In this document: positions 13,568 through 15,976 of the stretch, one piece after another
How positions within the stretch are numbered: the first letter of the stretch is position 1
Layout of the letters: each line of letters starts with the position of its first letter
Origin: an uncultured Bacilli bacterium
GTDB taxonomy: Bacteria; Bacillota_I; Bacilli_A; RF39; UBA660
DNA length: 64,000 bases
NCBI GenBank assembly: GCA_947626275.1
Contig: CANQRL010000007.1
Location: 2,983 to 66,982 of the forward strand
Direction of reading: 5' to 3'
Position numbers and translations under genes: made by a program
Notes under the pieces: model-generated
The model's database searches: none
Seen by the model: only the letters and a program-made list of their open reading frames with translations
Told to the model about the DNA's origin: nothing

Positions 13568-15976
13568 CTAACATCCATAATAATCTTTACGTATTGTGTA
13601 TACTAGTTGCTTTCCTTCAATTGTAATTTCTTCTTGTACATATTCTTCCTCGGTATATTGGGAAGTTTCCGTTTCTTCTGTCTCCGTGTTTCCTAGCTCT
13701 TCCACTGGTGGGAGAGTTTCTTCTGGGACTACCCCTGACACTTCTATTGGTGGGAGAATTTCTTCTGGAACTGTCTCAGGTACTTCTGCCGGTGGTAAAG
13801 GCGCTTCTGGAACTGTCTCCGATACATCTACTGGTGGTAGTGTTTCTTCTAAAGTCACTGTAGGCGTTGATACCGGTGCTGCCACTTCCTCTATACCTGG
13901 TGGGTCAAGAGGAGAGCTAAAATCATTTTCTATTTCTATAAAGTAATCGCAATCCATATTCTTACAATGATATTCTGTTCCCCAAATAGAGGTAACTGGG
14001 TGATCATAGTCTAAATCGTGTGGAACACTTACACGTCTTATTTCTTCTTGGCAATCAGAACATTTATAAATTTCAATATAGCAATAGTCAGGGACAGGAC
14101 TTGCCGGTTTATCCGTTTCCGCCAAATATTCTACGTGTTGATGTGGTTGTTCTTTGCTACTTCCACATGTCTGACATTGACCCCAATCTCCATGTTCATA
14201 AGAGTGTGGACGAGTATATTCTTCTCCACAAGGACAAGTTAAGTATTCTTGATCATCGTCATAATGATCTACTTGATAATCGTGATGGTGTTCTTTTGTT
14301 TCCGTATGTCCACAACCATCAGTTGTACATTTATATGTTATATGTGTTTTTGTACCATCATAAGTACCATTTTCATAATCCATGGTATGATTTCTTGTTT
14401 TTTCCATTCCGCAAGCACATTCTAGATACTCATACTCTTCATCTTGTTTTCCATTGAATTCAAAGTTGTGTTCCGTTGGCGTCCGACTTAATTCTTTCCC
14501 ACAATGAGTACAGGTTACAACCGTATTGTAACACTCACTATCAACATCATAAGTAAATTCTATTTTAGATTCCGTTGTGTGTTTTACGATTTGAGTACCC
14601 ATTACTTCATTACAAGTTGTACAGTAGGTTACAATTTTATAGCAATCTTCGTCTGAACCTTCAATAAGTTCTTCTCTTGTACCATCTTGGTTATGTTCAT
14701 GTTTTGGTGCATCAACATGTTTCGTATAAGTACATCCTTCATTTTCACAAGTCGTATCTTGAGAGCCATCTGGATTAACCGTGGTCTTTAATTGATGTTG
14801 TTTGCTAGTCGTCTCACCACATTCGCATTCCCATGTCTCACCATCTTCATCTATCCTTGTAAGACTGTCAAAAGCATGACTATGATCAATATGATAAGAG
14901 TAGCTACATCCTGGATTTTCACAAGAGACATCTTGTGAATAATCCGCATTTTGAACAGTTGTAAGGCTATGAGATTTCGTTGTCGTTTTACCACAACTGC
15001 ATTCCCATGTCTCACCATTCGCATCATAAGATAAAAGGGTGTTATAGGCATGAGTGTGTTGCGGTTTTGTTTCCCCTCCACCTGGAGTTGGTTGTGGAGC
15101 TGGCTTCAATGTCTTTGTATAACCGCATTCTTCATTTAAACAATCAAAGAATGTAGAACCGTCTTCTAACTTTTTACCTGCATCTAAACGGTGTTTTACC
15201 GCCTTTTGATAGCCACATATACAGGTGTAATACTCATTTTCTTCATCGTAGGAAGAAAATGTTAAAAAGTCATCGTGTTGATGAGTTCTAGCCTCGTAAA
15301 TATCATAATTTAAAGCTTTTCTTTCATCCTGCTTAGTTTTTTCATTATAAACCCAGTCTCCAAATTGAATATCTTCTAACTTAGTAGACTTTACAACTCG
15401 ATGATGGCAGTCCTTACATTCATAAATGGTTTCTTGCGTATAAAAGTTGTAATTATATATATAATTACTAGATAGAACACAAAAAAAGTGTTCTATCTTT
15501 TCCGTTTCGCCACAACCCTCACATTTTTTTTCGTGTAATGTATCATCTATACTTATATAGGTATATTGATGTTTATGCTTTGTTTCTACGCTTGAACTGG
15601 TTGAATCATTTAATCCTGGATTTTTTGTATCTTCTGGCTTCGTTGTATCTCCTTGCTGGGTATTGGTGGTATTTTCTTTATCATCAGAAGTTTGCTCGGA
15701 AGATCCTGGAAATAAGTCGTCTTCCTGTTCTTGATCCTTTCCCGTCTCAGGCGTAACCTCTATCACATAATCATCGCTTGGTGATTCATCTGGTAGATTA
15801 TCTTCAATACCTGGAGGTAAAGTCGTATCTGCATCAGAATCTTGATGTCCTTTCCATAAATGATATCCTATTGTTCCGGATACTGCCAATGTAATTCCAA
15901 GTCCAACCGCCGTTATTTTGACACCCAATTTTTTTAACTTTTTATTTATAGAATTTCTATCCAACACGAAAATCAT
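13568..15976 (-). CDS. Large membrane-anchored secreted protein with ~8 tandem Cys4/His-rich modules and C-terminal Pro-rich repeats
   Basis: 802 aa; N-terminal anchor 'ITAVGLGITLAVSGTIGYHLW'; low-complexity T/D/E/Q linker; repeated units of the form W-E-C-x-C-G-x7-H … C-E-N-x-G-C-x5-H-x2-H (e.g. 'WECSCGKTTTKSHSL…SCENPGCSYSYHIDHSH'); C-terminal 'ETLPPVDVSETVPE'-type repeats; first gene of the SipW cluster. Confidence 0.6.
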   Translation of the reverse strand: MIFVLDRNSINKKLKKLGVKITAVGLGITLAVSGTIGYHLWKGHQDSDADTTLPPGIEDNLPDESPSDDYVIEVTPETGKDQEQEDDLFPGSSEQTSDDKENTTNTQQGDTTKPEDTKNPGLNDSTSSSVETKHKHQYTYISIDDTLHEKKCEGCGETEKIEHFFCVLSSNYIYNYNFYTQETIYECKDCHHRVVKSTKLEDIQFGDWVYNEKTKQDERKALNYDIYEARTHQHDDFLTFSSYDEENEYYTCICGYQKAVKHRLDAGKKLEDGSTFFDCLNEECGYTKTLKPAPQPTPGGGETKPQHTHAYNTLLSYDANGETWECSCGKTTTKSHSLTTVQNADYSQDVSCENPGCSYSYHIDHSHAFDSLTRIDEDGETWECECGETTSKQHQLKTTVNPDGSQDTTCENEGCTYTKHVDAPKHEHNQDGTREELIEGSDEDCYKIVTYCTTCNEVMGTQIVKHTTESKIEFTYDVDSECYNTVVTCTHCGKELSRTPTEHNFEFNGKQDEEYEYLECACGMEKTRNHTMDYENGTYDGTKTHITYKCTTDGCGHTETKEHHHDYQVDHYDDDQEYLTCPCGEEYTRPHSYEHGDWGQCQTCGSSKEQPHQHVEYLAETDKPASPVPDYCYIEIYKCSDCQEEIRRVSVPHDLDYDHPVTSIWGTEYHCKNMDCDYFIEIENDFSSPLDPPGIEEVAAPVSTPTVTLEETLPPVDVSETVPEAPLPPAEVPETVPEEILPPIEVSGVVPEETLPPVEELGNTETEETETSQYTEEEYVQEEITIEGKQLVYTIRKDYYGC
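13680..13900. repeat. Imperfect ~42-45 bp tandem repeats (coding for Pro/Glu/Thr/Val-rich repeats)
   Basis: Reiterated 'ACTTCTxxTGGTGGxAGxxTTTCTTCTGGxACTGTCTC…' units visible directly in the sequence. Confidence 0.5.

Follow-up and report, generated by a model that had tools for sequence, protein, structure and literature searches.

The protein P0001, encoded in a 64,000-nt stretch of DNA from an uncultured Bacilli bacterium (contig CANQRL010000007.1 of assembly GCA_947626275.1; the whole stretch is called the window below), belongs to a family of Cys/His-repeat proteins that is real and conserved, unannotated, and not a known family. Considering all the evidence together, its best explanation, to which we give about an even chance, is an exported, membrane-tethered and metal-stapled stalk that serves a SipW-dependent fibre. 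From the N- to the C-terminus, the protein consists of a basic N-terminus, a hydrophobic anchor, an acidic linker, eight Cys/His modules, a Pro/Glu-rich repeat, and a conserved short tail (Table 1). It contains 37 Cys (4.6%) and 38 His (4.7%) among its 802 amino acids (aa), and an identical copy is present on 6 contigs from metagenomes or metagenome-assembled genomes (MAGs).

Thirty-six of the 37 Cys residues are located within aa 152-676, where they can be counted as 18 close pairs (C-x-C, C-x2-C or C-x4-C) or as 16 C-x(1-4)-C pairs with four additional Cys (C166, C445, C482 and C632). An earlier reading of this DNA (hereafter the sequence-only reading) had counted about eight modules, which agrees with the five canonical units recognised by a unit profile and the three variant modules that accompany them. 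The canonical unit is ~58-61 aa long rather than the ~50 aa estimated at that time, and six instead of seven residues separate its CxCG motif from the following His (C-x-C-G-x6-H); the two example strings quoted then were located at aa 324-367 and aa 382-428. Pairwise identity between the units of the protein is 25-55%. Among 43 core family members, the head-module motif FG(D/E)W-Y-N-x-E-T-x-x-DER was seen in 11, and a cap-type module (C-x6-C-x2-C-x8-12-H) in 31, mostly in the position of the last module.

By searching a profile of 11 units exhaustively against 1.84 billion cluster-representative proteins with HMMER, 85 proteins were detected at E <= 1e-3, including 38 at E <= 1e-10 and 21 at E <= 1e-30. 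In unrelated family members outside the profile, the unit recurs 3-11 times with E-values from 1e-98 to 1e-30. Considering this recurrence together with the identity between units, the repeat pattern is not a product of chance. A word-index search of 5.8 billion proteins with the whole repeat protein retrieved the protein itself and one relative (P0002, 34% identity), whereas the same kind of search with a 131-unit alignment gave nothing from 6 candidates, its short rows probably limiting that search; no relative was found when GTDB species genomes were searched with the single repeat protein. Neither Pfam nor NCBIfam provided an above-threshold match for the repeat protein, its relatives, or the 131 individual units (the whole protein scored best with zf-BED in Pfam, at 14.7 bits for a cutoff of 20.6, and had no NCBIfam match), and a sequence search of the PDB with the whole protein gave no match below E 0.3. 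None of the family members looked up has a name in the source database, and literature searches using phrases for tandem or repeated zinc ribbons, as well as broader ones, gave no description of such a repeat.

Conservation of the Cys and His positions in relatives, which the sequence-only reading had set as a test of its metal-site idea, was examined in an alignment of 131 non-redundant units from 38 proteins (numbered according to the window unit at aa 365-422) and proved to be strong. C20, H30, C46 and C51 are invariant, and the other positions are conserved at ~87-99%: position E16 is Glu in 130 of the 131 units and Asp in the remaining one, and the counts for Cys at C22, His at H3 and His at H1 are 119, 118 and 114, respectively. 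In 11 of the 12 units that lack C22, a C-x2-D motif with exactly three Cys is found, and this Asp substitute combined with an odd Cys count, which would be tolerable in a tetrahedral metal site but not in a disulfide pair, argues for metal rather than disulfides. Distant relatives often have His at position E16 (e.g., H-K-K-T-C-E-C-G in P0050), which is a ligand-type exchange. Cys is generally excluded from exported proteins of Firmicutes, in which disulfides are rare (PMC2823432), so the 37 Cys residues of the repeat protein are exceptional; on the other side, extracytoplasmic Zn sites containing Cys have been documented in penicillin-binding proteins (PBPs) of mostly anaerobic Firmicutes (bioRxiv 10.1101/2022.01.04.474981). 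Based on these two reports, Zn sites appear more plausible than disulfides in a gut anaerobe. Overall, we consider it quite likely that the modules bind metal.

Profile comparison is consistent with the earlier suggestion of zinc-ribbon-like modules. Among solved structures in the PDB, the 131-unit profile best matched RPA12, a subunit of RNA polymerase I, in its C-terminal TFIIS-type zinc ribbon (E 5e-4), followed by a second RPA12 (E 0.038) and, more weakly, RPB9; the RPA12 alignment covers unit positions 19-57 with no large gaps and places the four Cys on the four Zn ligands. When single units were compared with Pfam, scattered sub-threshold matches were obtained, mostly to zinc-ribbon or zinc-finger families with at most 9 of the 131 units on any one family and with weak E-values throughout, and the gathering threshold was not reached for the zinc-ribbon models of Pfam and NCBIfam (TFIIS_C, Zn_ribbon_RPB9, zinc_ribbon_2, DZR and others). 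The AlphaFold check of a two-unit fragment that had been proposed was run with AlphaFold2 (AF2) on aa 300-432, i.e., two units plus the next H-x-H, using 38 aligned double units. It gave a confident all-beta model (mean predicted local distance difference test score 94.2) with twelve short beta-strands, in which each unit runs through a hairpin, the C-x-C-G knuckle, the strand(s) with the invariant His, a hairpin turn, a strand leading to Cys, the C-x4-C knuckle, and a further strand before the next H-x-H. No solved structure resembled this two-unit model in fold searches, and the RPA12, TFIIS and RPB9 ribbons were not retrieved by them.

The ribbons of TFIIS, RPA12 and RPB9 appear to share with the repeat unit, besides the RPA12 profile match and an all-beta fold in the model, both knuckle spacing and strand order: C-x(1-2)-C-G, a beta-hairpin of ~23-25 residues, C-x(2-4)-C, and a further strand. 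However, their first knuckle is C-x2-C whereas the repeat unit has C-x-C and an extra N-terminal hairpin with the conserved H-x-H and Glu, and they are cytoplasmic or nuclear, single-copy modules that contact nucleic acid or polymerase, whereas the repeat family is extracellular, with 3-11 arrayed units. The fold class appears familiar (zinc-ribbon-like), and the location and the tandem arrangement are unusual. Judging from ligand spacing, we prefer one putative Cys4 (or Cys3Asp) site per unit, and the H-x-H/Glu/His set may either bind a second metal or join one module to the next. Strand order alone had led to a different partition, with Cys2His2 and Cys2HisGlu sites bridging adjacent hairpins, which is less favoured because TFIIS-type ribbons share the asymmetric spacing and have all four Cys on one Zn.

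The N-terminal anchor and linker noted before are both present, as a basic stretch, a hydrophobic segment and a D/E/T/Q/S-rich linker, and the N-terminal segment would act as a signal anchor or else as a signal peptide. An extracytoplasmic location is likewise predicted for the family, considering that a basic and hydrophobic N-terminus is found in nearly all apparently complete members and that no family member looks cytoplasmic. Core members share a common architecture consisting of this N-terminus, a low-complexity linker, 3-11 units, an acidic stretch, and a short C-terminal tail; the linkers of homologues are equivalent and differ in composition (e.g., PTETPxP repeats in P0002). Homologues have lipobox-like SGC or GGC motifs at the place where P0001 has LAVSGT without Cys. 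Among the 67 best profile hits (P0001-P0067), a lipobox-like Cys directly follows the hydrophobic segment in 26 of the 53 N-terminally complete proteins, and P0001 and P0002 have SGT/GGT there, so that the repeat protein of the window does not match the lipobox pattern [LVI][ASTVI][GAS]C. Sortase anchoring was rejected for the repeat protein, which has no LPXTG and no hydrophobic C-terminal segment and ends in ...EGKQLVYTIRKDYYGC.

At the other end, the Pro-rich repeat is a 42-nt (14-aa) unit present in 3.6 copies at 13699-13850 according to Tandem Repeats Finder, instead of the five copies that had been reported. It is followed by a 17-aa tail of alternating hydrophobic, strand-like residues and then basic residues, which ends in ...QLVYTIRKDYYGC with a terminal Cys. 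Similar tails, alternating in hydrophobicity before Lys/Arg, are found across the family (e.g., KPLTLTLKK, KPVMLVLTKK and PKVLTLKLEGRC). A regular expression for this motif matched 32 of 51 distinct family tails and 66 of 269 control open reading frames (ORFs; Fisher p = 2e-7), a figure that is indicative only because the expression is crude and misses obvious cases; by eye, the motif is present in most of the family tails that it missed. A terminal Cys, whose codon in the window is 13571-13573, also ends the tails of P0002, P0007 and P0078 and that at locus L065 (...YYGC, ...EGRC, ...NGRC, ...IGRC, ...NYGC), and the 900-aa protein of the same gene cluster has an invariant Cys ~5 residues from its C-terminus (window 9363-9400). 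A covalent link between the C-terminal Cys residues of these two proteins is conceivable.

The repeat gene is the first gene of a SipW cluster in the window, as had been claimed, and in other genomes as well. From the promoter onwards, the cluster encodes the repeat protein, SipW, a 224-aa pilin-like protein, a 900-aa cadherin-like protein, a second peptidase, a 197-aa pilin paralogue, and a 603-aa protein. This seven-gene order is common to five loci, the window and L001, L006, L010 and L011, at different and unrelated chromosomal sites, and the family members that head it outside the window, in other MAGs, are P0002, P0008, P0028 and P0030; for P0009 and P0021, a SipW-sized gene comes next and the contig then ends or nearly ends. 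By scanning one genome per GTDB species for the pilin motif [VI][SA]GTYAKYT, we found 77 loci. All of them lie in MAGs whose labels read uncultured Bacilli, Tenericutes/Mollicutes, Erysipelotrichaceae or Clostridia, obtained from the guts of rabbit ('Lapin'), mouse, Hadza humans, sheep and deer. These loci were divided by SipW type using a simple N-terminal motif, which gives a rough split. In class A (KKWY-type SipW N-terminus), an adjacent upstream Cys-rich ORF (at least 8 Cys) was present in 22 of the 24 loci with enough upstream DNA, and 17 of the 24 match the hidden Markov model (HMM) of the unit, whereas in class B (short SipW, mostly Clostridia-labelled) an upstream Cys-rich ORF was present in only 4 of 29 loci, three of which match the unit HMM and appear misclassified. 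The difference between the two classes indicates that the repeat protein is a near-obligatory first gene of one SipW/pilin cluster.

Weaker profile matches point to a wider group of shorter repeats. P0034, P0036, P0041, P0043, P0044 and P0050 contain the pattern H-x-[WFY]...H-x3-C-x-C-G-x7-H, which is also present in P0068, P0069, P0075, P0077, P0083 and P0085 and sometimes alternates with C-T-x2-G...C-x2-C-G...H units; neither Pfam nor NCBIfam has a model for it. The proteins that contain these repeats are large surface proteins of Firmicutes whose heads are of the LRR_5/BspA, Endonuclease_1 or protease-like kind. Several have a membrane anchor at the C-terminus, and the arrays occupy the membrane-proximal stalk position. 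Such Clostridial repeats resemble the repeat family in being caught by the unit profile (E 1e-13 to 1e-3) and in their extracellular, stalk-like placement, but they are half the size (~27-35 aa) with 2-3 Cys, have His where the repeat family has Glu, and are found in C-terminally anchored proteins with no SipW linkage. Because related repeats lie between adhesive or catalytic domains (LRR_5, Endonuclease_1) and C-terminal membrane anchors elsewhere, a stalk role is supported for the repeat protein, and we consider this role somewhat more probable than not. The tandem Ig-like (immunoglobulin-like), Rib and SasG-type stalks of fibrillar adhesins are comparable in that small beta-rich tandem modules of variable copy number lie between the anchor and the distal end (PMC9210967). 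However, those stalks have metal-free or Ca-dependent Ig-like folds covered by Pfam models, while the repeat protein is Cys/His-based and has no distal globular domain and no LPXTG.

In the stalk explanation that we favour, the protein would be exported and tethered to the membrane by its N-terminus, as expected from its N-terminal features, and its ectodomain would be rod-shaped, with about eight small modules of all-beta fold that are each held together by a metal, most likely Zn. Each canonical unit would comprise an N-terminal beta-hairpin carrying H-x-H and the near-invariant Glu, and a zinc-ribbon-like core with the TFIIS-like pattern C-x-C-G-x6-H-x15-C-x4-C, in which a single metal ion would be bound by the four Cys. 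The rigid stalk would then present the Pro/Glu-rich linker and the conserved strand-like tail far from the membrane. In this arrangement the repeat protein may be an accessory, anchor or nucleator of the fibre, possibly by donating the strand at its C-terminus to one of the pilins. Such a role is proposed because the gene holds the tapA position in a SipW-dependent cluster with weakly TasA-like pilins; an anchoring or nucleating function exercised through the tail remains tentative and is, in our estimate, rather less likely than the stalk role itself.

TapA (YqxM) of Bacillus subtilis is the positional counterpart. TasA fibres are nucleated by this minor accessory protein, which donates a short terminal strand for the purpose and is poorly conserved even within Bacillus (PMC10151520). 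Like the repeat protein, TapA is exported and contains Cys, and its gene is first in tapA-sipW-tasA; the repeat gene indeed lies immediately 5' of sipW and a TasA-like gene, the TasA-likeness of the 224-aa protein being weak to moderate (a weak, non-specific fold resemblance to TasA and to an archaeal bundling pilin). In contrast to the repeat family, TapA has 253 aa with one Ig-like (V-set) domain and two disulfides, and no repeats, lipobox or metal motif; its structures 6HQC and 6QAY were not matched in the PDB sequence search, where nothing fell below E 0.3. A bolder version of the stalk explanation, which we regard as doubtful, is that the zinc-ribbon stalk represents an undescribed class of extracellular, metal-stapled beta-ribbon rod, on which, anchored through lipid or in the membrane, a new SipW-dependent, TasA-like pilus system of uncultured gut Bacilli is based. 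This rod would span the wall and capture or nucleate the fibre by inserting its C-terminal strand into the pilin. It would then be a functional counterpart of TapA built from different parts and acting through the opposite terminus.

Several observations weigh against the stalk explanation and its extension to the fibre. Which ligands belong to which site was judged from their spacing and from a profile match that is borderline (E 5e-4). The SGT(I/Y)(G/A) motif of P0001 and P0002 resembles that of SipW-cleaved pilins, and considering this motif and the missing lipobox Cys, both proteins may be released rather than anchored. TapA has no sequence relation to the repeat protein and donates an N-terminal strand (aa 44-57) instead of its C-terminus, while the C-terminal tail of the repeat protein is unlike the conserved N-terminal ARVAKW segment of the pilins and its motif is loosely defined. 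Every family member also comes from an uncultured organism, so that expression of these proteins is presumed.

Other explanations were compared with the metal-stapled stalk. If the modules were held by disulfides between C-x-C and C-x4-C, the protein would be a disulfide-knotted extracellular stalk, and this would suit the even number of Cys (36) in the repeat region as well as the two disulfides of its positional analogue TapA, given that AF2 cannot tell a disulfide from a metal site. However, 11 of the 12 units without one Cys retain three plus an Asp, an odd count, invariant His and Glu accompany the Cys, the spacing fits a Cys4 zinc ribbon, and the hosts are gut anaerobes from a phylum that largely avoids exported disulfides, all of which make this improbable. 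The array might also capture or buffer metal at the surface and hand over Zn or another metal, by analogy with PhtA, PhtB, PhtD and PhtE, the streptococcal/pneumococcal histidine-triad proteins, which are Firmicute surface proteins in which a short, His-rich motif for Zn binding occurs several times. The predicted extracellular location and the up to eight conserved potential ligands per unit, with H-x-H, His and Glu beyond the needs of a Cys4 site, would be in line with it. We nevertheless give it a small probability, because linkage to SipW and pilins is strict and none of the five loci contains metal transporters or regulators, Cys4-type sites are too tight for metal exchange, and no match to Strep_his_triad or to metal-transport families was found. 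The Pht proteins themselves have HxxHxH without Cys, are linked to zinc uptake genes, and differ in fold and spacing; PF04270 (Strep_his_triad) has no Pfam match here, the repeat motif being H-x(1-2)-H followed by Cys knuckles.

It could further be argued that the repeats themselves are adhesive and attach, independently of any fibre, to other cells or to polymers from the host or its diet, since this is a long and repetitive surface protein of a gut organism and since unit number (3 to 11) and sequence vary widely among species, as in fast-evolving adhesins. Against this, no binding domain is recognisable, related repeats elsewhere occupy the stalk position beside a membrane anchor, the C-terminal tail is the only conserved segment beyond the metal ligands, and an adhesin role would better suit the 900-aa cadherin-like protein encoded nearby, so an independent adhesin seems no more probable than metal capture. 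Least probable is that the Zn-thiolate modules sense oxygen or oxidants, with oxidation unfolding or shortening the stalk and thereby switching fibre display off or on. Such sensing has been suggested for PBPs whose Zn sites contain Cys, in mostly anaerobic Firmicutes (bioRxiv 10.1101/2022.01.04.474981), and many exposed Zn-thiolates would be oxidant-labile, but the argument is one of analogy, the cluster has no regulatory partner, and a redundancy of at least eight sites would be more usual for a repeat with a structural role.

Two electron-transfer readings were also considered. The protein is not a multihaem c-type cytochrome, having one CxxCH only (CKDCH, aa 187-191), with its other pairs being C-x-C, C-x4-C, or CxxC without a following His. 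An Fe-S or rubredoxin-like electron wire was set aside by reasoning, as one Cys cluster per ~60 aa is probably too distant for electron hopping and as the genes of the repeat-protein cluster include no redox partners.

Table 1. Segments of the repeat protein and associated features in the window (aa, residues of the repeat protein)
Feature	Position	Strand	Basis or remark
Cys/His-repeat protein P0001, 802 aa	13568..15976	-	ORF list
Promoter-like TTGACA-16 nt-TATAAT, 12/12 match	15998..16025	-	consensus match only; 22 nt 5' of ATG
aa 1-40: basic N-terminus (KKLKKLGVK) and hydrophobic segment (ITAVGLGITLAVSGTIG), aa ~17-37	15857..15976	-	hydropathy, sequence
aa 41-133: acidic low-complexity linker, D/E/T/Q/S/P-rich	15578..15856	-	sequence
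aa 134-231: variant module ('head'), HKH...CEGCG...H...CKDCHH...FGDWVYNEKTKQDER...	15284..15577	-	
aa 232-425: three canonical ~60-aa units, H-x-H...E-x3-C-x-C-G-x6-H...C-x4-C	14702..15283	-	HMM domains 232-291, 307-364, 365-422
aa 426-502: variant module, two C-x6-C-x2-C-x10-H motifs	14471..14701	-	regular expression and sequence
aa 503-611: two canonical units, second shortened, second knuckle C-x2-C	14144..14470	-	HMM domains 500-562, 563-611
aa 612-689: variant module ('cap'), C-x6-C-x2-C-x10-H then H-C-x4-C	13910..14143	-	
aa 690-785: Pro/Glu-rich linker with 14-aa repeat (ETLPPVDVSETVPE-like)	13622..13909	-	Tandem Repeats Finder, sequence
aa 786-802: conserved C-terminal tail (IEGKQLVYTIRKDYYGC)	13571..13621	-	family-tail comparison
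SipW-type (archaeal-type) signal peptidase I, 225 aa	12897..13574	-	TIGR02228, 99.5 bits vs cutoff 51.85
224-aa pilin-like protein, conserved N-terminus SGTYAKYTS...ARVAKW	12155..12829	-	
900-aa protein, two Cadherin-like domains, C-terminal pilin-like motif	9363..12065	-	PF12733, E 1e-26
Second S24/S26-type signal peptidase, 252 aa	8602..9360	-	PF00717, 34.3 bits vs cutoff 23.3
197-aa paralogue of the 224-aa pilin-like protein	7998..8591	-	alignment: TY(A/S)(K/R)Y...ARVAK(W/F)...SA-x-Q motifs in common
603-aa protein, N-terminal anchor, last cluster gene	6169..7980	-	position conserved in five loci
Terminator-like palindromic hairpin, just 3' of last cluster gene	6141..6165	.	consensus scan only
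tRNA gene adjoining integrative element	6004-6084	-	
Tyrosine integrase of integrative element	4655-5965	+	
DnaB-like helicase of integrative element	787-1995	-	

At the 5' end of the repeat gene, within window 15950-15990, a Shine-Dalgarno-like AAGGGG directly abuts the ATG at 15976 and has normal spacing to a GTG located 9 nt downstream (codon 4); because the GTG is better spaced, translation may start three codons later. At the 3' end, the repeat gene shares 7 nt with the sipW ORF. The non-peptidase proteins of the cluster are all without a name in the source database. The 900-aa protein is the sole non-peptidase neighbour with Pfam domains (Cadherin-like and T2SS-T3SS_pil_N), neither of which indicates function, and it aligns with the pilin family over the W-x-W...D-T-x-x-G motif at an hhalign probability of 93%. 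The pilin family has 115 homologues, and the 603-aa protein has no Pfam match. In both peptidases (window 12897-13100 and 8602-8800), a second hydrophobic segment is followed by a long Lys/Ser/Glu-rich C-terminal tail (e.g., KKEEQKKEEEKKSTKKSSSKKKSSKED), a feature that is repeated in related loci.

The end of the cluster is abutted by an integrative element (window 1-6084), which also carries a replication-initiator-like gene and helix-turn-helix genes and is absent from the equivalent position in L006, L010 and L011. Two further tRNA genes lie on the minus strand at window 21457-21606, between a KilA-N gene and pyrG. Within the repeat family, a divergent branch at L009 and L073 (P0021-type) has proteins of ~1000 aa with the tail ...KVL(T/S)LDNNKYYY and units with N-G-D-G-T-H segments. 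These units give sub-threshold matches to Pfam CFSR (collagen-flanked surface repeat) and to the TIGR04203 repeat, and a BclA_C-like gene is located nearby in L009.

Zinc ribbons are known as single intracellular modules; extracellular arrays of them in Gram-positive bacteria, if true, would represent a novel construction for a rigid surface stalk, and a metal-stapled stalk would be open to anaerobes that avoid disulfides. An HMM for the repeat family and the wider Clostridial repeat would annotate a recurrent and now invisible surface element of gut bacteria. The repeat gene also flags a conserved and wholly unannotated seven-gene SipW/pilin cluster of uncultured Bacilli from rabbit, mouse, human and ruminant guts, which probably builds an adhesive fibre relevant to colonisation. 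For such fibres, the repeat family provides a concrete candidate for tethering where TapA is absent.

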